The position numbers and the translations under genes are program-made. A DNA stretch of 64,000 bases, from assembly GCF_041248615.1 (NCBI RefSeq), contig NZ_CP158426.1; one strand, given 5' to 3'. How positions within the stretch are numbered: the first letter of the stretch is position 1; each line of letters opens with the position of its first letter. Source of the stretch: Escherichia coli (GTDB lineage Bacteria; Pseudomonadota; Gammaproteobacteria; Enterobacterales; Enterobacteriaceae). Shown here piece by piece: positions 3,940 through 57,747 of this stretch. The notes under the pieces are model-generated. The model made no database searches. It saw only the letters and a program-made list of their open reading frames with translations, and had not been told where the DNA came from.

Positions 3940-6900
3940 TTAACTCGCCTGGGAAGGCGCTTCGTCACTTCCTGGAAGCGTTTCAGGGAGTTGCGGCGCA
4001 AATCCTCGCAGGCCGACGACGTGAACGTGTTCGGTATTCTGGAAGACTTTACGCACCAGTTTATAGGTGGTGCCTTTTTCCGGACTGATATTTTCCGGCG
4101 CTGCGATGATGAGCTGCATTTGCAAACGTTCACACAATTCAAACAGCGTGGCGATAGAACGAGCATCCAGTCGCGCTGCTTCATCGAGGAACAGCAGGCG
4201 GCAAGGAGAGATATCTTTACCGCGCAGGCGGCGAGATTCATCTTCCCAGCTTTGTACCACCATCACCAGAATCGACATACCGGTACCAATCGCCTCACCG
4301 GTCGACAATGCGCCAGACTCTGCGCGCAACCAGCCATCGGAACCACGGTTAACCTCAACTTCCATTTCCAGATAGTTGCGGTAATCCAACAGTTCTTCAC
4401 CGATGGTCTGCGGCGTGCGCTGCCCCATATCAATCTGCGGATTAAGACGCTGATACAATTTCGCCAGCGCTTCCGAGAAGGTCAGACGGTTGCTGTTAAA
4501 CAGATCCTGATGCTGCTCGTGCTGTTCAGAGAGCACATCCAGCAGCATGGCGTGCGTTTCACGCACGTTCACGTTGAGGCGCACGCTGTTCACCTGACCA
4601 AACGATACGTTCTGCAACCCCTGGTTGAGCATACGGATACGGTTCTGCTCGCGCTGAATGGTTTTGCGAATGATGTTCGCCACGCTGCGGGAACTGATCG
4701 CCAGTTTCTGTTCACGGGAGGTTAACTCTTCGGTCAGACGGCTAAGTTCGATCTCCATCTGTTCGATAGCTTCCACCGGATCATCGGTACGAATAATATC
4801 CTGACGAATACGTTCACGCAGATGCTGATAAACCGCCACGAAGAACTGAATTTTACGCTCCGGACGTTTCGGATCTTCCGACATGCGCAGCACGTCGCGC
4901 AGATGTTCGTTATCCGCCACCGCCAGACGCAGCGCACCTAACGCCTTATCCGACATAGAGCGCAAATCATCAGCGGAGAGATAAGCCAGCTCACGACGGT
5001 GTAAGCGACGCTCAACGCCGTTATCTTTCACCATGCGCATGACTGCACACCAGCCCGCTTTCGCGGTCACTACCTGCTCGCGCATCTCAAAGTAATCACG
5101 CTCCAGCTTTCGCAGTTTGCGGGTCAGGTTGTCCATCTCCGCTTCGCAGAAGGTGAGCGCTTTTTCCAGTTGATTGCGGCGTGAACGGTTATTGCTCAGT
5201 TGCGCATGCAGCTCGTCACGGCGAATACGTGCCCGCTCTTCTGCCCCGCTATCAGCACGCACGCCGATATCCTGCAATTCACGTTGCAGATCGTTAAGTA
5301 GCTCTTTTTTGGTGTCATACGAACTTTTCAGCGAAGCCAGCACCTGGTTGTACTGACTCAACTGCGCTGCGTGTCCGCGCAACGCTTCACGCGCGCGGGT
5401 ACGCTCCGCTTCCGCCTGTTCCAGACGTTCACGCAGTTTTTCGTTGAGATCGCTGTTACCGCTCAGCATTTCTGCCGAGTCAGAGTAGCTAAAGTGCGCA
5501 CGACGCTGCACCACTTCCGTCAGGGCAAACGCCTGCTGACGGGCATCGCGCTGCATCTGCTGAGAGTACGCGTAATCTTCTTTTAACTGTTCGAACTGTT
5601 CCGGGTCGCTCTGCAATACCGAAACGATCGGTTCCAGTTTCGCCAGTTGATTGCCAAACTGCTGAACAAAACGCGCGGCTTCCTGGGCTTCATCCAGACG
5701 TTCGCGGATTTCATCGACGCGATCCGCCAGGCTGTCATCAGCCAACAGGTTTAGACGCGGCAGAATGCGGTTCAGCGCCGTAACACCCTCTTTCGCCTGC
5801 TCAAACTGAATACGCTGCTGCTGGTTATCATTTTCATGATTACTCAACGCCCGCTCCAGTTCGACGCGACGGCTGTTCAGTTGACGGATTTCGGCTTCCG
5901 GATCAGACTCAAACGCCACCGCCAGATGACTACCTATAAAGCGGCTGAATGCCTGATGCAGACGCTGGGTTTTCTGTACATCAAAGGAGAGCGTGGCGAA
6001 GCGTTCGGAAAGTACTTCACGCTCGGCATGGAGGCTTTCAATACGGCTTTCACGCGCAGCACGACCAAACAGCGGCACTTCCGGGAAACGTGAATAACGC
6101 CACTGACGATCGGCGATTTTCACCACTACCGCTTTTTCCAGCTCATCAACGCTGAACACGCTGTCATCGAATGACTGCGGATCCCCTTCGATCAAATAGA
6201 GATCTTCCGGGCAATCGGTCAAGCCTTCCAGGTGTTCGGTTACCTGTGACAGATCTGGCACCACGATGGCGTGGCGTGACGGGCCATACAGCGCCGAGAA
6301 GTACGGCGCATCTTCCAGACTCACGTCGTCATAAATTTCGGACAGCAGCACACCACCAAAACGCTCCGCCAGCGCATTCAAACGCTGGTCTTCAGAACCA
6401 CCTGGCTGGCTTAAACGTTCGATCTCTTCATCGACGGTGTTTTTGCGCGCGCCTACTTCATCGCGTTCAACAATGGCTTCGCGCTCACGCTCCAGCAACT
6501 GTTGCAGATATTCGGTGACATCCTGGCTGGAAGAGAACTCTTCGCCGCACTGTTCGCTCAACTGGTTGAGGCTGTTTTGCGCTGCCAGCCAAACCGGTGC
6601 ACGCTGCATCAAACTCTGAATGCGAGACTGCAGCTGTTCCTGTTCCTGGCGCAGTGCCATGCGCTCTTCACGGGCGTTAGACACGCTATCGGAAAGAGAG
6701 GCAATGCGTGCTTCCAGCTCCTGATGCAGAGCTTCCAGTTCATCAATATCAAAATTCTTGCCCTGACGTTTGCAGAAATCTGCCAGCAGGCGTTCGGCTT
6801 CTTGCTGCTCGCGCAGACGCTGTTCCAGTTCGCTTAAGCGCATCCGCAACGGTTGAACCTGCTCTGCCAGGTGACGCTGATCGACCCCTTCGCGCAATAG

Positions 6901-42296: not shown

Positions 42297-42466
42297 AATG
42301 GCTCACTCAAGCTTGCTCACGATTGATTCCAGTAACAAACCGTATTGTGTAATTATTTCTATAGCAGTTCGCTATATAGGCTTGTATACATCGAATAATT
42401 TGAAAATCAAAGAGATAGGTAGATTTTCACTCGAAAGTAGTATTACGTGTAAGTGAGGAGTAATTA

Positions 42467-42480
42467 TTGTTCGGTATCAA
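42467..42480. promoter_or_regulatory. candidate FNR-box-like dyad upstream of dmsA
   Basis: TTGTTcggtATCAA matches TTGAT-N4-ATCAA with one mismatch; position relative to the true dmsA transcription start not verified. Confidence 0.3.
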
Positions 42481-42592
42481 AGGGAGACAAAAAAAGCGCC
42501 CGCAGGAGATTTAACGGTACTTACTCCTCTTGCTGATTTCCTTATTTTTCAATAAGTAAACAAAAACAAGGGGAGCAAATTATCACAAATAA

Positions 42593-43597
42593 TTACTGGT
42601 CGATGGACAGTTTATGGACACTTTCAGCCAGCGGATTAAAGCTGATCGCATCCTGTAAAAAGTCCGGTGAAAAATGCGCATACGTCATCGTTTGCTGAAT
42701 CGTGGCGTGACCCAGGATCCTCTGCAACGTGACGATGTTCCCGCCGTTCATCATGAAATGCGTGGCGAACGTGTGCCGCATGACATGCGTGGCCTGCCCT
42801 TTGGGTAAGTCGGGCTTCACCTCCTGAAGGATCTCCCTGAAACTGAGATAATCAACCTGATATAACAGGCCGGTCCGGCGGGTTTTAATTAACGGCACAA
42901 CGGAATCAGCTACAGGAACCGAGCGCGATTTCCCGTTCTTTGTGTTAAAGAACGTCACCCTGTTACCCACGATGTGTTCCCCGCGAAGCGTTGACGCCTC
43001 TTTCCATCTGGCCCCGGTCGAAAGGCACAGAATGGCAATGCGTCGTGCATCACCCTCAAGCCGTTTCAGAAGGCGATCAATCTCGTCATCTGAAAGAAAG
43101 GCCATTTCTGTATTCTGAACCTTGAGTTTACGTATTCCGCGCACAGGGTTTTCGTTATGATAAACCTCCGCGTCAATTAACAACGAAAACATCGCAGATA
43201 AGGCGCACAGGTCGCGATTGATACTGGACGGCATCAGTCCCGCCTGCAACTTATCCGAGCGATACTCAATCACGAATTTTCGTGTCATCTGGCTGGCGCG
43301 CGGGTCCCCCATTTCACGTATCACCTTCTCCAGTCTGGTTCTGTAGGTATCACCATATGCCTGATTACGACCATCAAGCATCCACCACACCTCAATCAGT
43401 TCTGATAACCGCCGTTGATCGGCGGGCCTTGCCTGCCACGGGTTATTGTGGAAATTCTGAAGAACGTATCTTTCGAATTCCTGCGCCTTTGATTTCAGGG
43501 TGAAAATCTTACGAATCCGCCTTCCTCCCGCCCCCTGAGGCCTTACATCAACCTGATAACGTCCGTCTTTGAGTTGCTTAATCGACATGATCAGCAC
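42593..43597 (-). CDS. int: tyrosine-type phage integrase (P2 Int-like)
   Basis: 334 aa ORF; C-terminal HxxR...Y catalytic motifs (VMRHTFATHF, LGHATIQQTMTYAHF); N-terminus IKQLKDGRYQVDVRP resembles P2 Int; adjacent to host junction. Confidence 0.85.
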   Translation of the reverse strand: MLIMSIKQLKDGRYQVDVRPQGAGGRRIRKIFTLKSKAQEFERYVLQNFHNNPWQARPADQRRLSELIEVWWMLDGRNQAYGDTYRTRLEKVIREMGDPRASQMTRKFVIEYRSDKLQAGLMPSSINRDLCALSAMFSLLIDAEVYHNENPVRGIRKLKVQNTEMAFLSDDEIDRLLKRLEGDARRIAILCLSTGARWKEASTLRGEHIVGNRVTFFNTKNGKSRSVPVADSVVPLIKTRRTGLLYQVDYLSFREILQEVKPDLPKGQATHVMRHTFATHFMMNGGNIVTLQRILGHATIQQTMTYAHFSPDFLQDAISFNPLAESVHKLSIDQ

Positions 43598-43657: not shown

Positions 43658-43999
43658 TCAGCCAGCATTGCGGCCTGATTGGGGTGATTTTTGGGTATTG
43701 CGGGTTGAAACCTGATCGTCCTCCGACTGCGTGGAGCCATCAAGAGAGAGAGCCGGGGCGATCTGACCGGCAACAGGTAGCGTCTTATCTTTGATTAGCC
43801 AGAACATATATTTTTCAAACCGATCCACTTGAAGGACGGCCTCAACAATCTTTGCTCTGGCGATCTTTTGCCCTGACTCATAATTCCTGACAGTTGCCAG
43901 AGATAACCCTGTAATATCAGCAAATTGCTTTTGAGTTAGCCCTTCCGTCTTGCGTATCAAACGCAACTTTTTCGCATAGTCTATTGACAAGATACTCAT
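43658..43999 (-). CDS. phage immunity repressor, P2 C-like (HTH)
   Basis: 113 aa ORF with HTH (LTQKQFADITGLSLATVRNYESG) and C-terminal QIAPALSLDG...SPQSGRNAG resembling P2 C repressor; divergent from cox-like gene. Confidence 0.75.
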   Translation of the reverse strand: MSILSIDYAKKLRLIRKTEGLTQKQFADITGLSLATVRNYESGQKIARAKIVEAVLQVDRFEKYMFWLIKDKTLPVAGQIAPALSLDGSTQSEDDQVSTRNTQKSPQSGRNAG

Positions 44000-44102: not shown

Positions 44103-44624
44103 ATGCGGGAGATTATTGCCGACAAAGAGTTATCTGGCGCTCAACCGGTTCAGGATGATGGCGCGGACAATGAATTCATTGAAGCTGCCAACGACAACGA
44201 ACACCTGGAAACCAAAACCAGACCGTCCTACAAAAAGGGCGCAACCCTACGACTGGACGGCCCAGTCGCAGGACTTGTGTCACTGGAAAAAGGGGCTGCC
44301 TATCTGGGGGTAACAAAATCTGCGCTACGCGCCGCCATTCAGCGCGGGCAGATGCCGGGTCACAAAACGCGCTCAAATCCCGAAGATGAAAAGTCAGACG
44401 GTACATGGTGGTTTAACGCCAAAGCCTGGGACGAACTAGCCGACGAACTACTGGAGTGCGAACCGCCAGAGTGGCACAACTGGAAAAGCTACTGGACGTA
44501 CGACCGCAAGAAAAGAAAGTTTTCACCGGCAAACAAGGAGGACTGCCAGACCGTTAAAGGTAAGCAGGTTTACTCCCCCAGAGTTTCAAAACTGGAGCAA
44601 CTCAAAAACAACCAGCCCGGCTAA
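44103..44624 (+). CDS. cox-position early gene, HTH-containing (excisionase/regulator-like), 173 aa
   Basis: First rightward ORF after repressor, RBS gagga upstream; contains AAYLGVTKSALRAAIQRGQMPG HTH-like segment; much longer than P2 Cox. Confidence 0.5.
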   Translation: MREIIADKELSGAQPVQDDGADNEFIEAANDNEHLETKTRPSYKKGATLRLDGPVAGLVSLEKGAAYLGVTKSALRAAIQRGQMPGHKTRSNPEDEKSDGTWWFNAKAWDELADELLECEPPEWHNWKSYWTYDRKKRKFSPANKEDCQTVKGKQVYSPRVSKLEQLKNNQPG

Positions 44625-44632
44625 ACACGAAA

Positions 44633-44839
44633 ATGACCAGCAATATCATCAATGCCGTTTTGAACATTATATTCCTGGAATTAGGCGTAGTAGTGATTTA
44701 TCTGCTTGGCAAGCTAACAGGACAAAAAGAACGTTTTATTGTCCTCAACGTTCATTACGTCGCAGCTTATTCTAAAGGGCTTTTTCCAATAGTTGTTGGC
44801 GCGGGACTTACAGCGTTTGTCATCTGGCTCATCAGGTAG
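44633..44839 (+). CDS. hypothetical small membrane protein (68 aa)
   Basis: ORF with two hydrophobic segments directly after cox-like gene. Confidence 0.3.
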   Translation: MTSNIINAVLNIIFLELGVVVIYLLGKLTGQKERFIVLNVHYVAAYSKGLFPIVVGAGLTAFVIWLIR

Positions 44840-45468: not shown

Positions 45469-45711
45469 ATGAAAAGAGCCTATAAAGAACTCATTAACGA
45501 CGCGCTTCAGAATTACCATTACGGACTTACAAGCCGTGGCACTAACGGTGACGCTGTTTCACTTGCAGCACTGACTACAGCAATCAAGGGCCTGACCTGT
45601 TGCGCCTTTGGTTCCGGAGATAATGAAGCTCTGACGGAATTACAGGCCATTAATAAAGACCTGTCTGAAGGAAACGTAATAACCCCCTTTGTAATTCAGG
45701 AGGAAGCATGA
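45469..45711 (+). CDS. hypothetical protein (80 aa)
   Basis: ORF with RBS-like aggcagcaagATG; co-directional with early operon. Confidence 0.4.
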   Translation: MKRAYKELINDALQNYHYGLTSRGTNGDAVSLAALTTAIKGLTCCAFGSGDNEALTELQAINKDLSEGNVITPFVIQEEA

Positions 45712-45833
45712 GCGTATTTATGTCATGGTTAATTCTTATCCTTGCCATTATTTGCGCTGTGGGGATTATGCGGGTAATTAACAGCATTAACACCATTGAA
45801 TCGTTATTTACTGGCGATAAGCGCCGTAAATAA
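45708..45833 (+). CDS. hypothetical small hydrophobic peptide (41 aa)
   Basis: ATGA-overlap coupling to preceding ORF; MSVFMSWLILILAIICAVGIM single TM segment; below ORF-table size cutoff. Confidence 0.3.
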   Translation: MSVFMSWLILILAIICAVGIMRVINSINTIESLFTGDKRRK

Positions 45834-46217: not shown

Positions 46218-46427
46218 ATGACTGCAATTCTGAGAAGACGCAATAAAACGCTTTTTACCGATACATCCGGGATGGAATACGAAGTGGAAAGCAGTGTCAT
46301 CGCCACCACCACCCGATGCCCGGCAGGTGACGAACTGATTTACGTCCACCTGACGGACGGGTCACAGATAACCGTCCTGACAGAGTCATGGCGCGAACTC
46401 GAGATAATAAGCGAGGTAAGAACATGA
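46218..46427 (+). CDS. hypothetical protein (69 aa)
   Basis: ORF closely following previous, co-directional. Confidence 0.4.
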   Translation: MTAILRRRNKTLFTDTSGMEYEVESSVIATTTRCPAGDELIYVHLTDGSQITVLTESWRELEIISEVRT

Positions 46428-46636
46428 GCAGCAAACACGATACCAACGCACGCAGACCAGGCAAAGAGGCGCGTCACCATATCGCCGTAATGCGCAACCT
46501 GCTTATGAGTGAAATCGACGATTTTGTGGCAGGCCTGGGGCAACCGGGCGAACCAGCAACACCAGGCCAGATACACAGGGAATTACGCCGCCGCGTGGAA
46601 AACGTCGTGGATTACGTCATAAACCCGAACGACTGA
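46424..46636 (+). CDS. hypothetical protein (70 aa)
   Basis: ATGA-overlap coupled to preceding ORF (start MSSKHDTN). Confidence 0.4.
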   Translation: MSSKHDTNARRPGKEARHHIAVMRNLLMSEIDDFVAGLGQPGEPATPGQIHRELRRRVENVVDYVINPND

Positions 46637-46675
46637 CGGGAACATGGCGAGCGTCAGATGACACACGCAGGGCAC

Positions 46676-47158
46676 TTATCGGGAAAAACCGATCGTAATG
46701 GCAGCCATCATCTTTTCAGCGAAAGAGAGAGATTCACGATGACTGATATTCAGAGACATACAGGCTTTGTTGTACGCCACATTTTCCATGCATTCCAGGA
46801 CAGGAGAGTCATGCATCTCAAGCTCTGGAAGGCGTGCCAGCAGAGCTTCCGTACTGAGGAGGGCGCTTTTGGTAATCAACTCATTGTAGCGATGGGCATG
46901 CTCACTCGCCGCCTGCGCACGTTGCCCGAAACGACATATGAAATTACAGGCTCCGAGAACCACCACCACTGCCCCAAGCACCCAGCCGAAATGCCAGCCG
47001 GCTACGATGAACGCACCCGCCGCAAGGATCAAAATGTTGATGATCGCATCAAGGCGACGATTGAATACCGCCGCGATGCGCTCCAGCCAGTAGCTGTACC
47101 AGAGACGGAACATGACCTCATCCCGTTCTCTCGATTTTTTACGTTGGTTGTTTTGCAT
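46676..47158 (-). CDS. hypothetical membrane protein, opposite orientation within early region (160 aa)
   Basis: ORF with basic N-terminus and long hydrophobic segment AIINILILAAGAFIVAGWHFGWVLGAVVVVLGACNFI; RBS-like gaggga upstream; the overlapping plus-strand ORF 46658-47293 is His-rich and judged a shadow. Confidence 0.45.
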   Translation of the reverse strand: MQNNQRKKSRERDEVMFRLWYSYWLERIAAVFNRRLDAIINILILAAGAFIVAGWHFGWVLGAVVVVLGACNFICRFGQRAQAASEHAHRYNELITKSALLSTEALLARLPELEMHDSPVLECMENVAYNKACMSLNISHRESLSFAEKMMAAITIGFSR

Positions 47159-47392
47159 GGTGTTTTATCCCTCATCGTCATCGCTCTGCCCCTAATCAGC
47201 GCAGAGTGCAGGGTAACCTGGCTCGTGGAATTTTTGCAGCCAGACATCTTTACCCCCGGGCGTGTTGAACAAAGTGTCCGCCAGATCCACTGAACGGCGG
47301 ATTCATCAATGCTAACACGCCCTTCTTTTCCGGTTGAAGGCGAAAAAACCGGACCATTACCCCGACACAAAACAGAACAACGGAGAACAACT

Positions 47393-47947
47393 ATGCCCGC
47401 ACTTAAACCTATGGGTGTATCAGGTGTACCACCGAAGCATGTCAGAGCCTGGACACAACAGGAAGATGCTCTACTGGTCGGTTTATACCCCTCCCACACC
47501 GTACCAGAACTGACAAAACACTTTCAGAGAACCGGGCCAGCAATACGAAGCCGCATCCGTCTTTTGCTCTCTCAGGGGGTTATCCACACCAAACAACCCC
47601 CCCTGAATACAAAAGAACTCAACACGCTCATCAGGAATCGCCACACAAAAACCATCCGGGAACTCGCGAATGAACTGGGGCGCTCGACATCCACGGTGGG
47701 ACTGAACCTGAGAAAAAGAGGGTACCGGTTCAGGAAATACGGGGAACTCCACCACAGAGCCAGATACAGCGATCACCTGGTGGAGTTGGTAACTGAACTG
47801 CGCGATGAACAGGGGATGACATTCAGCGAAATCAGAAAGTACATCCGGGACATGGCCGGGATATCCCTTAAAAGATGGGTCCTCGCCCGGCTTTACGCAC
47901 GATATACCGCCGCTGACACCGTGCTTTGCGAACTGCTACCGGACTGA
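47393..47947 (+). CDS. hypothetical protein, possible DNA-binding (184 aa)
   Basis: ORF 47309-47947; start placed at MPALKPMG with RBS ggag upstream; basic, helix-rich segments. Confidence 0.4.
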   Translation: MPALKPMGVSGVPPKHVRAWTQQEDALLVGLYPSHTVPELTKHFQRTGPAIRSRIRLLLSQGVIHTKQPPLNTKELNTLIRNRHTKTIRELANELGRSTSTVGLNLRKRGYRFRKYGELHHRARYSDHLVELVTELRDEQGMTFSEIRKYIRDMAGISLKRWVLARLYARYTAADTVLCELLPD

Positions 47948-48036
47948 GTAACCACTATGCACACACAAAAAAACCGCTTGCCATGCCGCAATCAGTCAGG
48001 TTACATTTCCGCTGCACCTCATAAAACGGGTGCCGG

Positions 48037-48260
48037 GATTGCAACCCCCGCTGACAACTACAGCGCACAACCGCGCCAGCGGTTTTTTTGTGCGTACCGT
48101 ATCGCCACGTCTTTTTCGCGCCAGAATTATGGCGGGGCGTATGGGGCCGACTTCGGTCGGGCCGGTTTCTGTAGTTGCCGGTGGTTGCAACCCTGTACGT
48201 CTCGCCACCCAGAATTGCAACCTCTGGATGGTGAGTTTTCAAAACTTGCAACTACAGAGG
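48037..48260. repeat. non-coding repeat cluster (TTGCAAC and CAACTACAG motifs, with hairpins)
   Basis: TTGCAAC at about 48040, 48185, 48216, 48247; CAACTACAG at about 48054 and 48250 with inverted copy tgtagttg at about 48171; ccgacttcggtcgg tetraloop-type hairpin at about 48145. Confidence 0.5.
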
Positions 48261-48267
48261 CCACACC

Positions 48268-48492
48268 ATGGCAAACCGCAAACAACAGCGCGCATACGCT
48301 GCGCGTCGTCACATCCAGACTGAAATCAACCGCAGACTTTTCCGCGCATTCCGCGTCGCGCATATCATGCACATCAATATGCTGCATGAGCGCAGCCACG
48401 CACTGTCAAACATGTATTCCGCCGCTGTATTCAGCTACCTGGCGGATGACCTGCGCGAGCTGCAGGACCTCATTAACCAGCACCACCACTAA
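48268..48492 (+). CDS. hypothetical protein (74 aa)
   Basis: ORF with RBS agagg upstream, downstream of repeat cluster. Confidence 0.4.
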   Translation: MANRKQQRAYAARRHIQTEINRRLFRAFRVAHIMHINMLHERSHALSNMYSAAVFSYLADDLRELQDLINQHHH

Positions 48493-48560
48493 TCAACATC
48501 CCGGAGCCATCCCGCCCCCGTACGCGGGAGGCTTCCGCACGTCCGTTTCCGGAGGTTCTC

Positions 48561-48974
48561 ATGAAGAGCGTTAAGGGACTTTCAGATATTCAGGATTTTT
48601 TTAACTGGATGTGGGCGGTGGATCCACGCCTCGCTTCCCGTCTCAATGACCTGCACGACTATTACCGCCGCGCCTGTAAACAGGCAGCCCGCAGCGCTGC
48701 CACATACGGGGATTTTTCCTTCACCGTTGACGACCGTTACCGCGTGGATGTCAGAGACCAGAACCACAGCCTGGAGCTGGGCCTGTTCCACATCAACGGG
48801 TGCGACAGCAGCGTTATCAGCTGGTCATCGTCAGAAATGGTGCTCGTTCTGGAAATGACCACCCACAGCGTGGTCGTGAAAGGGATTAAAACAGCAGAAG
48901 ACTTTATCGCTGAATACCAGCGCCTTCTTGTGCTGTACCGGGCTGCATTTCAGAAGGCAACAGCAGGGGAGTAA
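48561..48974 (+). CDS. hypothetical protein immediately upstream of gene A (137 aa)
   Basis: ORF ending 5 nt before gene A start. Confidence 0.45.
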   Translation: MKSVKGLSDIQDFFNWMWAVDPRLASRLNDLHDYYRRACKQAARSAATYGDFSFTVDDRYRVDVRDQNHSLELGLFHINGCDSSVISWSSSEMVLVLEMTTHSVVVKGIKTAEDFIAEYQRLLVLYRAAFQKATAGE

Positions 48975-48979
48975 GCGGA

Positions 48980-51490
48980 ATGAGCCATCACCACACGCAC
49001 CTGGCGTACCCGTGGAACGCCCCGCTGCCGGTTATTGATCCTGAGACATTCGGCAGAGCATTACCGCAGAAGCCAACCGCATTACAACGGGCAATCCGTG
49101 ACTACCTCACCGAAGACATTCGCACTGAGGCCCGGCTGGATGAAGAAACCGTGGCCTTCCTGACAACCACGGACAAAGGTAAGCAAATTAATTCACACCT
49201 TCACCGGGACGAAGAGCGGCAGATAAGGCTGGATAAGCTGGCACGACACAGACGCGAAAATCCGCCAACGGCGGTATCGGAGGCGATAGCCGAACTTCGC
49301 ACCCTGCCCTCGTTTCTTGCCAGTGTGTTGATCCGTGATCTGGCACGACTGAACCGGAAACAGCAAAGTGCCCGCAGTGAAGGTGTAAAAAACAACAGCG
49401 CATACGTGGCCGATAATTTCGTTCGCCGTGGACTGCGTGCGCGCCTGAAACGTATTGAAAGGGTTAACGACCGCTTTGCAACGCCGGCATTCAAAACCAC
49501 CGTCGTGCGCCATCGCCTTGAAGAACTGCTCACACTGCCGCAACTCACCCGTGACGAAATCCAGCGCATCGCCACACTGACAGCCCAGGCATTCGCCGCA
49601 GAATTTGAACGCATATGTGATGAAGTTCTTGAACGGACAGGCAAGGATAATGACAGCCCGGTTATCTGGCTGCTGGCCTACCAGAAGGTGGCACGCACAG
49701 CCTTAATTCTGGGCATGGTCCCGCCATACTGGCCGGAACTCGAAATCAGGCACAACCGACGCACACCGCCGGACCCTGAACGGGTTCCGGGTGCGGTACT
49801 GCGCATCACCTGCGCGACCTGGTGGAACAACCAGTTACGCCACGTCGCCGATCTCTGGCGGGAGGAGTTACTGCGCGCCGCCGGCAGAGTGTCACGTAAA
49901 CAATCCCCCTATATCAGCCATGAGTCACTACTGGAGTTCCGCGAGAAGCGCCAGCGCACCTGTGACTTTCTCAAAAGCTGGGATATTGAAAACGAAGACG
50001 GCGAGCGCCTGAGTCTGGAGGACGTGTACTGGGCTGGCCTGGGTAATCCACGCAACCGCCGCAATGAAATGATGGTCTGCGTCAGAGGGATGGAGATGGT
50101 GGCCGAATTACGGGCTGACGTCGCATTCTTCATCACAGTAACCACCCCTTCCCGCTTTCACAGCGTGAACGAGAACGGCAGCCTGAACCCGAAATACAAC
50201 GGTGCCACAGTACGAGATGCCAGTGATTATCTGGTTTACGACTTCTTCGCAGCCGTAAGAAAAAAAATAAAAAAAGAGGGGCTGGGCTGGTACGGCGTGC
50301 GAACCGCTGAGCCACACCATGACGGCACGCCACACTGGCATATGCTGGTATTCACTTCCCCGGAGAACGCAGAGCGCATCATCGAAATTATGCGCGAAGC
50401 AGCAATTAAATCAGATCGCCACGAACTGGGGGACGATATTTCACCGCGCTTTAAATGCGAGAAGATAGACCCGGAAAAAGGCACACCGGCAAGCTATATC
50501 GCAACCTATATCGGTAAGAACCTGGACGCCAGCGCTTTCCACAACAATGATCCGAAAACCGGAAAACCTTACGTTGATGAGGAATCCGGGAAAACCATGG
50601 CGGAAACCGTGGAGAACGCCATTGCCTGGGCAAGCCTTCACCGCATCCGTCAGTTCCAGTTTTTCGGCATTCCGCCCCGCCAGGTATGGCGTGAACTCCG
50701 CCGCCTTGCAAGCCAGATGGAGCGCAACCCGGCATCACCGAAGCACCTCGATCATGACGATATTGACGCCATTATGGCTGCCGCAGATGTGGGATGTTTT
50801 GCCACCTACATCATGAAACAGGGTGGTGTGCTCATTCCGCGCAACCAGTATCTGGTCCGCACCGCATACGAAACCGCAGACGAAGCCAACGACTACGGTG
50901 AATTCCCTCAACGTATCTACGGAATCTGCGCCCCGTCGCTCGGAGAGCGGTACACCATATGCACCCATCCGGACGAGTGGAAACTGGTTAAAAAAGAAAC
51001 AACACCAGACAACCGCACGGGCGAGGGTTTTGACCTTCATGGCGACCCCGTCGCCCCTTGGACTCGTGGCAATAACTGTCCCCGGGATGAAAAAACAGAC
51101 AATCACGGACCAGAAAACAGGCAGGACCCCGGACGACTGACGCTTCCCGAAGAGAACCTGGAAAGCTGGCTGAATACGTTAAGCAGGGGCGATCGGAGAA
51201 AACTGCGTAATCAGATTAAAAATCAGCCGTCGGGCGCAAAAACCGGACAAAACGACACCACACCGGCATCTGACACCCCTGTAAGGGTGGGGATTGTCGT
51301 GCCTGCGGATACCGCGACGGACACGCAAATCGCCCGCGAACTTGATGCGCTGGGTGTGCAGTTGCCTGACGCGGCCATCATCTCCGTGCGTAACGGTGCC
51401 CGTGTGCGTCTGGATAACGGGGGAACAGCGTACTGGGATGAGTCAGCCCGTCACATCATCACAGAGCAGCCAGTGGAGGCGGGAGCATGA
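48980..51490 (+). CDS. A: replication initiation endonuclease, P2 gpA-like (rolling-circle)
   Basis: 836 aa ORF in the gene A position; HUH-type GTPHWHMLVF motif. Confidence 0.8.
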   Translation: MSHHHTHLAYPWNAPLPVIDPETFGRALPQKPTALQRAIRDYLTEDIRTEARLDEETVAFLTTTDKGKQINSHLHRDEERQIRLDKLARHRRENPPTAVSEAIAELRTLPSFLASVLIRDLARLNRKQQSARSEGVKNNSAYVADNFVRRGLRARLKRIERVNDRFATPAFKTTVVRHRLEELLTLPQLTRDEIQRIATLTAQAFAAEFERICDEVLERTGKDNDSPVIWLLAYQKVARTALILGMVPPYWPELEIRHNRRTPPDPERVPGAVLRITCATWWNNQLRHVADLWREELLRAAGRVSRKQSPYISHESLLEFREKRQRTCDFLKSWDIENEDGERLSLEDVYWAGLGNPRNRRNEMMVCVRGMEMVAELRADVAFFITVTTPSRFHSVNENGSLNPKYNGATVRDASDYLVYDFFAAVRKKIKKEGLGWYGVRTAEPHHDGTPHWHMLVFTSPENAERIIEIMREAAIKSDRHELGDDISPRFKCEKIDPEKGTPASYIATYIGKNLDASAFHNNDPKTGKPYVDEESGKTMAETVENAIAWASLHRIRQFQFFGIPPRQVWRELRRLASQMERNPASPKHLDHDDIDAIMAAADVGCFATYIMKQGGVLIPRNQYLVRTAYETADEANDYGEFPQRIYGICAPSLGERYTICTHPDEWKLVKKETTPDNRTGEGFDLHGDPVAPWTRGNNCPRDEKTDNHGPENRQDPGRLTLPEENLESWLNTLSRGDRRKLRNQIKNQPSGAKTGQNDTTPASDTPVRVGIVVPADTATDTQIARELDALGVQLPDAAIISVRNGARVRLDNGGTAYWDESARHIITEQPVEAGA

Positions 51491-53829: not shown

Positions 53830-55371
53830 ATGCCAACAGTTCCAATTTCTATGAGAAAACTTAAAGAAATTCTTAGGCTTAAATACGGTGTTGGACTCAG
53901 CCATCGACAAATTGGTCGTAGTCTTGCAATCTCCCCTTCCGTTGTATCCAGATATGCTAATCGGGCGGCTCAACTTGGCATAAAGCAGTGGCCCTTACCT
54001 ACAGGATGGGATGATACAAAACTAAAACATGCGTTCCTTCAGACCCAGGTTAAGATGAAGAAGCACTCTCTGCCTGACTGGGCTACAGTACACCGGGAAC
54101 TGCGTAATAAATGCGTGACGCTGCAGCTACTCTGGGAAGAATACTGTGAGCGTAATCCAGGCGGTTTTTACAGCTATAACCATTACTGCCGGATGTACCG
54201 TGAATGGCTCAAAACCACTTCACCATCAATGCGTCAGGTACATAAAGCTGGCGAAAAACTTTTCGTTGATTACTGTGGACCTACCGTTGGCGTTACCGAC
54301 CCTGAGACCGGAGAAATAAGAACTGCTCAGGTCATCGTAGCTGTTCTCGGGGCATCAAGTTACACATGGGCAGAGGCCACCTGGTCTCAGCAGCTTGAAG
54401 ACTGGGTGATGAGTCATGTTCGCTGCTTCCAGTGGTTGGGTGGCGTTCCTGAACTTGTTGTTCCGGACAATCTGAAAAGCGCCACATCCAGGGCATGTAA
54501 GTATGATCCTGACGTTAACCCTACCTACCAGCAGATGCTTGAGCATTATAATGTCGCAGTTTTGCCTGCGCGGCCACGTAAACCGAAAGATAAAGCCAAA
54601 GCTGAAGTTGGCGTTCAGGTTGTTGAACGCTGGATCATGGCCCGAATCAGGCATGAGATCTTCTACAGCCTTGCATCGCTTAATCAGCGCATTCGGGAGT
54701 TGCTGGAAAGACTGAATAACAAAATAATGCAGAAGTTGGGTTATTCACGTGCAGAACTCTTCATCCAGCTTGATAAACCCGCACTGAAGCCTCTTCCTGA
54801 AGCCAGTTACAGTTACACCCTGGTGAAGAAAGTCAGAGTTCATGCCGATTACCACGTGGAAATCGACAAACATTACTACTCGGTTCCATGTTCGCTGTTA
54901 GGCCAGCAACTGGAAGCATGGATCTCCGGAGAACTGGTAAGACTCTTCAATCAGGGGCAGGAGGTTGCTGTGCACCCGCGCAAGCGTACTTATGGCTACA
55001 GTACCCGCAACGAGCACATGCCTGAAGCTCATCGACAGCATGCCACCTGGACGCCAGAGCGTCTTCTGGAATGGGCGGGGCACATAGGCAGTGAAACTCA
55101 TAGTTATGTGCTTCATATACTGAACTCTCGTCCACATCCGGAACAAAGCTATCGCTTCTGCCTTGGACTCCTGAACCTTCATAAAAAATACAGTAAAGCC
55201 AGACTTAATGCAGCATGTGCAAGAGCTCTGAAAACAAAGGTATGGCGTCTGTCAGGTATTAAATCGATCCTGGAAAAAGGTCTGGATAAACAACCTGTTC
55301 AGGATCCAAAACCAGATCTGTTATCCACGATGGAACACGAAAACGTACGCGGCAGTGAGTATTACCACTGA
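53830..55371 (+). CDS. istA: IS21-family transposase IstA
   Basis: 513 aa ORF; N-terminal HTH (LSHRQIGRSLAISPSVVSRY) and integrase-like core. Confidence 0.85.
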   Translation: MPTVPISMRKLKEILRLKYGVGLSHRQIGRSLAISPSVVSRYANRAAQLGIKQWPLPTGWDDTKLKHAFLQTQVKMKKHSLPDWATVHRELRNKCVTLQLLWEEYCERNPGGFYSYNHYCRMYREWLKTTSPSMRQVHKAGEKLFVDYCGPTVGVTDPETGEIRTAQVIVAVLGASSYTWAEATWSQQLEDWVMSHVRCFQWLGGVPELVVPDNLKSATSRACKYDPDVNPTYQQMLEHYNVAVLPARPRKPKDKAKAEVGVQVVERWIMARIRHEIFYSLASLNQRIRELLERLNNKIMQKLGYSRAELFIQLDKPALKPLPEASYSYTLVKKVRVHADYHVEIDKHYYSVPCSLLGQQLEAWISGELVRLFNQGQEVAVHPRKRTYGYSTRNEHMPEAHRQHATWTPERLLEWAGHIGSETHSYVLHILNSRPHPEQSYRFCLGLLNLHKKYSKARLNAACARALKTKVWRLSGIKSILEKGLDKQPVQDPKPDLLSTMEHENVRGSEYYH

Positions 55372-55382
55372 TACGGGATCCA

Positions 55383-56132
55383 ATGATGAATCATCTTTAC
55401 GAACAACTGACCGCACTTAAACTCACCGGCTTCCGTGATGCGCTTAAAAAGCAACTTGCTCAGCCGGGCACATACCAGGAGCTGGGCTTCGAAGAACGCC
55501 TGTCATTACTGACAGCAGAAGAACTAACCTGCCGTGAAAACAGGAAGGCAGAGCGTCTGATCAAACATGCACGGTTCAGACTTAATGCTGAGTTATCAAA
55601 GCTGGATTATCGTAACAATAGAGGGCTGGACAGGGCCCTCATCCGTTCACTCAGTCAGGGAAACTGGTTAACCCTGAAACAAAATATTTTACTGACCGGG
55701 GCCACCGGCAGCGGTAAAACGTTCCTGGCATGTGCACTTGGTCATAATGCCTGCCGACAGGGATACAAGGTCTACTATTATCGCCTTAAAGCGCTGATGG
55801 AACAGTGCTATCAGGGGCATGCTGATGGAAGATACAGCAAACTTTTGACCAGGCTGAATAATAGCGATCTGCTGCTTCTGGATGACTGGGGGCTGGAACC
55901 TCTCTCATCAGAACAGCGTAGCGACCTGCTGGAAATAGTGGATCTGATGTACCAACGAGGCTCAATCATCGTAGTGAGCCAGTTGCCGGTGGAAAACTGG
56001 TACAAAATGATCGGAGACTCCACACATGCGGATGCCATCCTAGATCGACTGGTTCATGGCAGTATCAAGATCGAACTTAAAGGAGAATCAATGCGGAAAA
56101 TACAATCTCCGTTGACCGAAGGAGATCAGTGA
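55383..56132 (+). CDS. istB: IS21-family helper ATPase IstB
   Basis: 249 aa ORF with Walker A GATGSGKT and Walker B LLLLDDWG. Confidence 0.85.
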   Translation: MMNHLYEQLTALKLTGFRDALKKQLAQPGTYQELGFEERLSLLTAEELTCRENRKAERLIKHARFRLNAELSKLDYRNNRGLDRALIRSLSQGNWLTLKQNILLTGATGSGKTFLACALGHNACRQGYKVYYYRLKALMEQCYQGHADGRYSKLLTRLNNSDLLLLDDWGLEPLSSEQRSDLLEIVDLMYQRGSIIVVSQLPVENWYKMIGDSTHADAILDRLVHGSIKIELKGESMRKIQSPLTEGDQ

Positions 56133-56691: not shown

Positions 56692-57747
56692 TCAGGATAT
56701 GGGCTGGGTGTCTAACAGTGCGTAAGGGTTAAAACGGATCACCTCTTCGCCCAGCCAGTCGTTGACGTGTTTCATTGCTTCCATGACGGGCATCAGTTCG
56801 TTAATGGCAAACACACGGGCTGCCTTCTCCACATCCCCGAATGACCCCTTCTCACCCGGCATGGCCCCCATCAGCTGCGGCGGTACACGGTGCACGGACA
56901 GCACATCATCACGCGATGCAGCCTTGACGTTCATGAACTCATCCTTTGCGGTGATTTGCTGAAACGGCAAAATCTGTACGCCATCCTTACCACCTCCCGC
57001 CGCGTGGATGAGCAGATTTTTAAACGCCCCGCCACCACGCGCGCTTTGCAGTGTTTCCCGCAGTTTTTCCATGCTTTCACGGTCAACCTGCGCCGCACCG
57101 ATGTAGACAATACAGCCCGCGTGTGAGCCGTTATCGTAGTAGAGCTTGCGGAAGATATCGGCGGAATGTGACAGGCTGGCAGACAGCAGGCCGCCCAGGT
57201 AATCCGGCATCCCGTAAATCTCCTGGTTGATATCAGGATTCATCAGGTGGCATATCGTCCCCTCACGAAAGCGGTACTCTTCCTGTCCTTCCTGTATATA
57301 CCACCATGATTTCATATCGCTGCCACGTCGCATGTATTTCGCCAGCGCCCGGCGCAGGGCCAGCGGTTCGCCAAGCATGTTGCGCCGCAGCTCAAGACAG
57401 GCATTACCGAACACAAACCAGTCCATCGCCACCCCGGCGAACTCCTGGCGGGACAGCAGAGGATGTGGAATATAGCAGCCCAGCAGCACATTACGTTTGA
57501 AGCTGAGCGCCGACTGGTGCCAGGACGTCTGGCGGGCAGCCCGTGCCAGTCCGTACCAGTCAACGGGCGTTTCAAACCACCGCCCGTTGTCGGCGCAGTA
57601 CATGCTGTCCAGCAGGTCGGCCCCTGACAGCCGGTAAGGTCCTTCAAACGTGAAGGCACTCAGTGTCGGGTCGCTTCGCAGGGAATCCGCAAGGCTGCCC
57701 TGCGCTGCGCGGGCGTTCGTACGTCGTTGTTTATTTTTTCTGCTCAT
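56692..57747 (-). CDS. Q: phage portal protein, P2 gpQ-like
   Basis: 351 aa ORF, leftward, stop overlapping the downstream terminase gene; position and size match P2 Q. Confidence 0.8.
   Translation of the reverse strand: MSRKNKQRRTNARAAQGSLADSLRSDPTLSAFTFEGPYRLSGADLLDSMYCADNGRWFETPVDWYGLARAARQTSWHQSALSFKRNVLLGCYIPHPLLSRQEFAGVAMDWFVFGNACLELRRNMLGEPLALRRALAKYMRRGSDMKSWWYIQEGQEEYRFREGTICHLMNPDINQEIYGMPDYLGGLLSASLSHSADIFRKLYYDNGSHAGCIVYIGAAQVDRESMEKLRETLQSARGGGAFKNLLIHAAGGGKDGVQILPFQQITAKDEFMNVKAASRDDVLSVHRVPPQLMGAMPGEKGSFGDVEKAARVFAINELMPVMEAMKHVNDWLGEEVIRFNPYALLDTQPIS

Follow-up and report, generated by a model that had tools for sequence, protein, structure and literature searches.

We analysed a 64,000-nucleotide stretch of an Escherichia coli chromosome (contig NZ_CP158426.1; hereafter the window) and focused on a 160-codon minus-strand gene at 46676..47158, here called mem, which lies among the early genes of a P2-like prophage but faces the other way. 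Judging from sequence comparisons, mem is a real, conserved protein-coding gene, and the minus frame is the selected one of the two overlapping open reading frames (ORFs) at this locus. Its product is predicted to be a small inner-membrane protein. The best explanation of the whole, to which we give a probability of about one half, is that mem would encode a SLATT-like exclusion or abortive-infection factor expressed from the lysogen. The coordinates, strand and length of 160 amino acids (aa) agree with those of an earlier note on this DNA; the start codon is ATG.

Conservation of the minus frame

To decide which strand codes, the window was compared with three diverged syntenic homologues, two from E. 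coli (loci L002 and L003) and one from a Yersinia phage (L004). The ratio of nonsynonymous to synonymous substitution rates (dN/dS) was 0.12-0.20 in the minus frame against 0.84-1.5 in the plus frame, and amino-acid identity among the compared homologues was 40-71% against 21-41%. Differences fall preferentially on the third bases of minus-frame codons (for example 46/30/89 over the three positions), and the synonymous sites of mem are saturated. For the window copy against its relatives, the dN/dS of mem was 0.16. Furthermore, Mem has a full-length match to the PHROG 6315 profile (218.9 bits, E 5.2e-65), in which its residues 10-160 align with positions 2-152 of the 152-position profile, while the product of the plus-strand ORF has no match in PHROG or Pfam. 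On this evidence we conclude that mem is the conserved coding frame. A conserved plus frame, which the earlier note had named as a finding that would overturn its claim, is not seen at the amino-acid level, and the family that it could not assign can now be named as PHROG 6315. The Shine-Dalgarno (SD) position of mem is also kept in the alignment of the relatives' upstream regions.

The plus-strand ORF, which has the sense of the early operon, contains an internal ATG at 46739 preceded by GAGAGAG. In the Yersinia phage vB_YenM_42.18 (OM046624, our L004), the deposited annotation holds a 221-aa ORF of this sense, vBYenM4218_008 (5788-6453, minus strand), where the mem homologue occupies 5977-6444 on the plus strand. 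This annotation is probably a strand mis-call, or else a dual-coding locus that was not recognised.

Predicted architecture of the Mem protein

The earlier note had described a basic N-terminus and a long hydrophobic segment with one or two transmembrane (TM) helices. Both features are borne out: nine lysines or arginines lie in the first 36 residues, and the hydropathy plot (Kyte-Doolittle) gives a continuous hydrophobic stretch at about residues 37-77, with windows up to 2.2. Hydropathy and AlphaFold2 (AF2) alike place two TM helices in this stretch, with a turn of two to three residues, Trp-His-Phe, between them. The AF2 model based on a 27-sequence alignment (predicted local distance difference test, pLDDT, 81; predicted TM-score, pTM, 0.71) consists of a long hairpin (2-53/57-100), whose tip holds the TM segments, and of three short helices after it (103-114, 123-135 and 146-155). 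It superseded a single-sequence AlphaFold model of poor quality (pLDDT 61). On this model, Mem is a small inner-membrane protein whose N-terminal helix is basic and cytoplasmic; a tight hairpin of two TM helices comes next, and the C-terminal part, again cytoplasmic, is helical.

Similarity to SLATT effectors and proposed role

The mem family has no significant match in Pfam. A sequence-profile search of the PDB returned nothing, and fold comparisons with PDB structures show generic hairpins only. The sole remote signal that recurs points to SLATT proteins, a group reportedly defined by Burroughs et al. in 2015. SLATT proteins have two to three TM helices and are predicted pore-forming effectors of CBASS, RADAR and DRT systems (PMC9226505; DRT10 preprint). 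Among the NCBIfam hidden Markov models (HMMs), SLATT_4 was matched by 8 of 22 family members and then by 27 of 93 (best E 8.6e-7). In the 93-member scan SLATT_1 was matched by five members and each unrelated family by at most one; in the 22-member scan, three unrelated families were matched by two members each. The SLATT_4 matches run colinearly through the N-terminal helix, the hairpin and the helix after it (in member P0138, residues 14-105 align with positions 4-104 of the 154-position model), and the window protein itself matches SLATT_1 at E 0.006 with 16.5 bits. In PADLOC, seven members matched CBASS "2TM effector" models and three matched "RTasSLATT", all of these matches being weak and of effector type. 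Likewise, at least 8 of the top 20 Foldseek matches among the viral models of BFVD are annotated as SLATT, at TMq 0.4-0.6 and E values of only 0.02-0.9. Mem also has the SLATT architecture, that is a helix, two close TM helices and further helices within about 130-170 aa.

The SLATT lead, which the earlier note had suggested for an HMM search, stands as a recurring signal, but every curated cut-off was missed and no SLATT-type genomic partner (SMODS/cyclase, SLOG or reverse transcriptase, RT) lies nearby. We regard Mem as SLATT-like and, with somewhat better than even confidence, as a distant free-standing branch, and we do not file it as a SLATT member. The word-indexed protein searches from the mem family returned no Pfam-annotated SLATT protein, and therefore gave no transitive link to SLATT. 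A single member matched Pfam SLATT_3 at E 0.64. Sub-threshold Pfam matches to ATP-synt_I (12 of 22 members) and HemY_N (5 of 22), as well as one-offs such as BaxI_1, were set aside as hydrophobic-hairpin noise.

In the proposed account, Mem would be a distant free-standing relative of the SLATT two-TM effectors and would act at the inner membrane by permeabilising it, gating or blocking entry. Because mem is oriented against the Pe operon, its expression may be reciprocal to early lytic transcription: converging on the Pe early operon, mem would be made while the C repressor keeps Pe silent, and at the start of lytic growth antisense or convergent transcription would damp it.

Several observations weigh against this account. 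A sigma-70 scan found no promoter-like site at window positions 46300-47700 and a search for LexA boxes found none near the mem locus, which is why the functional role is put forward here as a proposal. The SLATT_1 score of the window protein compares with a curated cut-off of 41 bits, the best of the individually scanned relatives reach 21-24 bits on SLATT_4 against a cut-off of 55, and all SLATT HMM scores of the family are under half of the curated cut-offs. The Pfam SLATT models gave nothing at E<=0.01 in the 93 members, and HMM matches that owe their score to TM helices are apt to be spurious. In about ten contexts, no cyclase, SLOG, RT or other sensor gene was found beside mem; the partner-gene contexts inspected were the window, L002, L003, L039, L040, L041 and L043-L048. 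Moreover, the position of mem is fixed across a whole clade of P2-like phages, which fits a phage-internal role as well as defence, and the partner ORF described below is, from its sequence, inactivated in the window copy.

As for other expression signals, the L030/L039 subfamily carries TTGTGT-N16-TATAAT with a perfect -10 element about 60 nucleotides (nt) upstream of the start, according to our script; a stricter tool does not list this site. Downstream of mem there is no convincing terminator.

Family, hosts and genomic contexts

An exhaustive HMMER scan (E<=1e-3) gave 107 representative clusters at 50% identity, nearly all with proteins of 145-180 aa and with matches spanning most of their length. 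All source database names are "hypothetical protein", and the hosts include E. coli, Salmonella, Yersinia, Brenneria and Polynucleobacter. The exact protein of the window occurs on well over 1,000 contigs, and mem is intact in 26 complete genomes of the window lineage. Among deposited phage genomes (50,697 records searched), the family was found in just one, as two records.

The prophage of strain GF60 is 100% identical to that of the window, and its annotation by the Prokaryotic Genome Annotation Pipeline (PGAP) was used for gene calls. From cox to gene A it contains one leftward gene only, which is mem (483 nt, hypothetical protein WP_029399959.1); all the others run rightward, so the counter-orientation reported by the earlier note is true. 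Its description of the placement holds in part: mem does lie backwards in the early region, but at the junction between the genes on the Pe side and the module of isrK, C4, derepression gene and gene A, and not inside one uniform operon. In IMG/VR, mem was found between int/cox and gene A at 34 loci, and at every locus where gene A was detected mem is on the opposite strand. The mem alleles are shuffled relative to gene A; in L023, for example, gpA is 81% and Mem 36% identical.

Outside this setting, more distant members also lie backwards, within the early-left operons of lambdoid prophages (L045 and, from Polynucleobacter, L043 and L044), within the tail module of a siphovirus (L046) and in a further early region of the P2-like type (L047). 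In one case, the lambdoid phage L048, mem is co-oriented with the operon. A distant homologue stands alone in the sopE2-pagO island of Salmonella enterica (L041 6001-6477), with sopE2/DUF1398 on one side and an acetyltransferase gene on the other; its cluster counts 1,564 member sequences, it lacks the small upstream ORF described below, and its antisense stops are normal in number. The patchy distribution, together with an orientation and placement independent of the operons, is the moron-like behaviour that the earlier note had supposed. This unnamed family forms a self-contained cassette that moves among the prophages of Enterobacterales and Burkholderiales and, as a rule, faces against the local operon.

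The stop-free complementary frame

Only a TTA, CTA or TCA codon of mem can place a stop in the complementary plus frame. Codon usage at the loci predicts about 85 such codons for 18 diverged lineages from the window's clade, and the number found is 15. At three PGAP-annotated loci these codons make up 0-3% of the leucine and serine codons of mem, compared with 14-19% in neighbouring genes (binomial P 1.4e-6). Thirteen of the 15 fall within the last 8-18 codons of mem, that is upstream of the putative antisense start, and downstream of the antisense ATG or GTG the frame is stop-free in 17 of the 18 lineages. It always extends beyond the mem start, close to the next operon gene. The other two antisense frames of mem hold 3-18 stops. 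Members outside the window's clade carry 5-12 stops in this same frame, and hence the Mem protein itself needs no avoidance of these codons.

The putative antisense start lies opposite the His140 codon or, for the L023 and L030 types, 18 nt before that point in operon direction (+45 vs +63), after GGAG. In phages of the L023 type, the DUF4406 gene that lies upstream ends 27 nt within mem, and GGAG and an ATG come next. The ATG opposite His140 was dropped as independent evidence for a start, since both histidine codons give a start codon on the other strand.

Unlike its sequence, the openness of the plus frame appears to be selected, and the frame does not look like a simply meaningless shadow. 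Because the openness is conserved while the sequence is not (the synonymous sites of mem being saturated), we suspect selection for operon-strand translation through the insert, for example to avoid Rho polarity toward downstream genes.

It is a substantial possibility, somewhat short of an even chance, that both strands are used, so that besides mem an operon-sense ORF is kept open across the backwards cassette. Ribosomes translating this ORF might shield the early transcript from Rho-dependent polarity, or might link translation to that of the next gene; another option is that the ORF encodes a fast-evolving protein. The stop depletion with its stop-rich control outside the clade, the clustering of the remaining stops before the putative start, the extension past the mem start and the arrangement in L023 all speak for such use, and a C4/isrK module lies downstream. 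In phage P1, the C4 module acts by translational block and Rho termination. On the other hand, the plus frame shows no amino-acid constraint and has no homologues, and the conserved histidine and Leu-Ser-Leu-Ser of Mem suffice to produce the start codon and some of the SD-like motif. L047, a counter-oriented P2-like member, has eight stops in the plus frame. Furthermore, a promoter-like site on the isrK side suggests that gene A may not depend on read-through, and the compared lineages are not fully independent. The GC skew of the plus strand over mem is only mildly C-rich (-0.08 to -0.12), which is no decisive sign for or against a rut site.

Examples of antisense overlapping genes have been described in enterohaemorrhagic E. 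coli and Pseudomonas (PMC9927249, PMC8850804). The mem locus resembles antisense overlapping genes and "shadow ORFs" in its long ORF of complementary phase and in a stop depletion beyond what codon usage predicts. It differs from them in that the openness is conserved across saturated lineages while the sequence is not, and in that the ORF fits the operon. These two features suggest that translation, rather than a plus-strand protein, is what matters. A more specific picture for this clade, in which a backwards cassette of a proline-rich micropeptide and a free-standing SLATT-like two-TM protein is read on both strands, the lysogen using one strand to make the membrane effector while ribosomes on the stop-free ORF of the other guard the early lytic transcript from Rho termination before the C4/isrK module, is offered tentatively and strikes us as rather doubtful.

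In frame 2 of the plus strand, three successive ORFs at 46658-48574 (the antisense of mem, the gene of the DNA-binding protein and an ORF over isrK, C4 and the derepression gene) share one frame, with three in-frame stops only in 639 codons (at 47291, 47945 and 48572); this may be compositional. The long plus-strand ORFs over isrK/C4 were dismissed as evidence, the region being stop-poor in several frames on both strands.

The proline-rich ORF upstream of mem

In most relatives, a 25-50 aa ORF with its own SD sequence lies directly upstream of mem on the same strand, and 2-16 nt separate its end from the ATG of mem. Where this gap is short, as in the P2-like clade of the enterobacteria, the codons of the ORF's acidic tail double as the SD of mem. 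This organisation suggests that the small ORF is usually translationally coupled to mem, mem being the second gene of a two-gene cassette in the relatives. The ORFs have in common a histidine followed by a stretch rich in P-x-P or PP. Examples are MSDSDKFHVPRQPAPAPEKGQGRDDEEG in L002 (6562-6649, minus strand; intact ORFs of this type in relatives are 27-37 aa long) and MGSNGVNGHVPNKPRPQPQPNPSKK in L046 (5914-5991, plus strand); others end in ...THPPRPKVF (Polynucleobacter) or in ...LHREPPPKPKKER (L045). The ratio of nonsynonymous to synonymous polymorphism (pN/pS) is 0-0.6 among enterobacterial copies, and one pair shows 55% synonymous-site differences with zero amino-acid change.

In the window the small ORF is broken: the DNA alignment shows a 1-nt deletion after ATGTCTGGC and a TAG at 47194-47192 that removes the acidic tail. 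As this upstream peptide gene is broken, the expression or control of mem is probably altered in the window lineage. The Salmonella copy has no such ORF, and neither do the L023/L026 and L030-L035 subfamilies; in these subfamilies there is a T-run hairpin and then TTGTGT-N16-TA(T/G)AAT.

The peptide could be a regulatory leader, possibly a proline-stalling one, or an accessory partner. In SecM-SecA and MifM-YidC2, leader peptides control membrane-protein genes, and polyproline stalling is relieved by elongation factor P. The likeness to such leader-peptide or upstream-ORF control lies in a short, conserved, P-x-P/PP-rich ORF placed 2-16 nt before a membrane-protein gene. The difference is that no known arrest motif was identified in the small ORF, whose peptide could equally be a binding partner.

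A function other than anti-phage, either as a toxin-antitoxin or addiction pair or in the phage's own cycle (membrane anchoring, lysis/lysogeny timing), seems unlikely to us. A small ORF coupled to a membrane protein is a layout of the toxin-antitoxin kind, and both the fixed position in the P2-like clade and the domesticated single copy of the Salmonella island would suit such a role. However, an intact toxin should always be accompanied by its antitoxin. In the window lineage an intact mem lies beside a broken small ORF in the 26 complete genomes and on well over 1,000 contigs, which makes a simple essential antitoxin unlikely, and the L023 and L030 subfamilies and the Salmonella copy do without it; the counter-orientation, moreover, speaks against co-expression with the lytic genes. 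We give a similarly low weight to the idea that the window mem is an inert relic, intact only by recency. The two lesions of its partner ORF, the failure to find a sigma-70-like promoter and the substitution of family-consensus residues (for example NPARNKA to NVAYNKA) would agree with decay, while the full-length ORF with a good SD, the low dN/dS against relatives and the wide occurrence of the intact allele argue against it. Finally, the reading that the plus-strand ORF is the true early gene and mem its mere shadow can draw on the way this ORF tiles the operon (the preceding gene ends at 46636 and the following one starts at 47309) and on the choice of the vB_YenM_42.18 annotators, but it is already contradicted by the dN/dS and identity values, by the PHROG match and the 107 clusters behind the minus product, and by the stop-rich antisense frames of distant relatives, in which the membrane protein exists independently of a plus frame.

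Prophage setting and neighbouring genes

The prophage is integrated beside dmsABC, as indicated by the ORF list, Pfam and the PGAP annotation of the identical prophage. The features of the locus are given in Table 1.

Table 1. Positions of mem, its sequence elements and the surrounding prophage features in the window
Feature	Position	Strand	Description	Basis
mem coding sequence, 160 aa	46676..47158	-	ATG start	ORF list, PGAP, PHROG 6315, dN/dS
mem translation initiation region	47159..47173	-	GAGGG at 47173-47169 and 10-nt spacer	read from sequence
Two-TM hairpin, codons 37-77	46928..47050	-	TM1 ~37-55, TM2 ~58-77	Kyte-Doolittle, AF2
Decayed small-ORF remnant	47165..47247	-	ATG 47247-47245, ancestral TAA 47167-47165	
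Operon-sense ORF, 211 codons	46658..47293	+	covers mem and small-ORF remnant in exactly complementary codon phase	ORF list
Integrase	42593-43597	-	prophage end	
C-type repressor	43658-43999	-		
cox	44103-44624	+	followed by a run of small rightward genes	
70-aa hypothetical protein	46424..46636	+	last rightward early gene before the cassette, convergent with mem	PGAP; no Pfam match
212-aa "DNA-binding protein", winged helix-turn-helix (wHTH)-like	47309..47947	+	divergent from mem	PGAP; weak wHTH Pfam matches
isrK-like element	48014-48089	+		Rfam 60.1 bits, above gathering score
C4 antisense RNA-like element	48125-48212	+		Rfam 80.1 bits, above gathering score
Derepression-protein gene	48268-48492	+		Pfam Derepression match
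Replication endonuclease gene A	48980-51490	+		

The gene of the 212-aa DNA-binding protein is present in the window and L002 lineages and absent from L003 and L039. The isrK and C4 pair recurs in L002 (7421-7618), L003 (6694-6891) and L039 (5845-6042). On the Rfam and Pfam matches, isrK, C4 and the derepression gene constitute an RNA control module of the P1-immI/P4 kind in the early region of P2-like prophages. Two overlapping terminator-like hairpins with T-runs were seen at 47348-47383 (minus strand), within the 5' end of the DNA-binding protein gene and upstream of the cassette; they could keep leftward transcripts from entering the cassette.

Two small, strongly hydrophobic ORFs lie in the rightward early operon, at 44633-44839 (68 aa) and 45708-45833 (41 aa), both on the plus strand and hypothetical in PGAP; the second is also found in L002, L003 and L039. 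Between dmsA and the integrase end, the enterobacterial small RNA STnc130 has a full-length Rfam match of 126 bits (42387-42521, plus strand). An element of the IS21 type (53830-56132, plus strand) carries ORFs of 513 and 249 aa with 47% and 45% identity to IstA and IstB of ISSso4. It separates the gene A side from the portal gene (56692-57747, minus strand), in the region of the P2 variable hotspot. The hotspot adjoining cos in P2 phages (Rousset et al., PMC9122126) is not the mem locus, which is in the early region.

Comparison with known systems and significance

Mem resembles the SLATT two-TM effectors in its size class (about 150-170 aa), in its N-terminal helix, two-TM hairpin and further helices, and in its carriage by mobile elements. 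To this are added the sub-threshold, colinear SLATT_4 and SLATT_1 matches, those to CBASS two-TM and RT-associated SLATT models, and the SLATT enrichment in Foldseek. Besides failing the curated thresholds and lacking a Pfam SLATT match, Mem differs from them in that its C-terminal third is unaligned, in having no nucleotide-signalling or RT partner, its conserved neighbour being only a tiny proline-rich ORF, and in lying backwards in phage operons.

Membrane proteins of prophage exclusion and abortive infection include RexB of lambda, SieA and SieB of P22 and Imm of T4, and P2 itself carries the lysogenic-conversion genes old, tin and fun. By analogy with these, Mem may be a small temperate-phage membrane protein placed for expression independent of the lytic operons. 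No sequence or fold relationship to any of them was detected, however, and mem sits in the early region.

Should Mem function as a SLATT-like effector, it would represent a minimal form that works without an enzymatic sensor. The conserved proline-rich ORF offers a handle on how a potentially lethal membrane protein is restrained. The stop-free frame has a natural control in the stop-rich relatives found elsewhere, which places it among the cleaner comparative cases for antisense-frame selection. The analysis also points to a probable error of strand in the annotation of at least one deposited phage genome. Should the proposed account be true, the mem locus would be a previously unlisted cargo site of P2-like phages, located in the early region rather than in the known hotspot adjoining cos.

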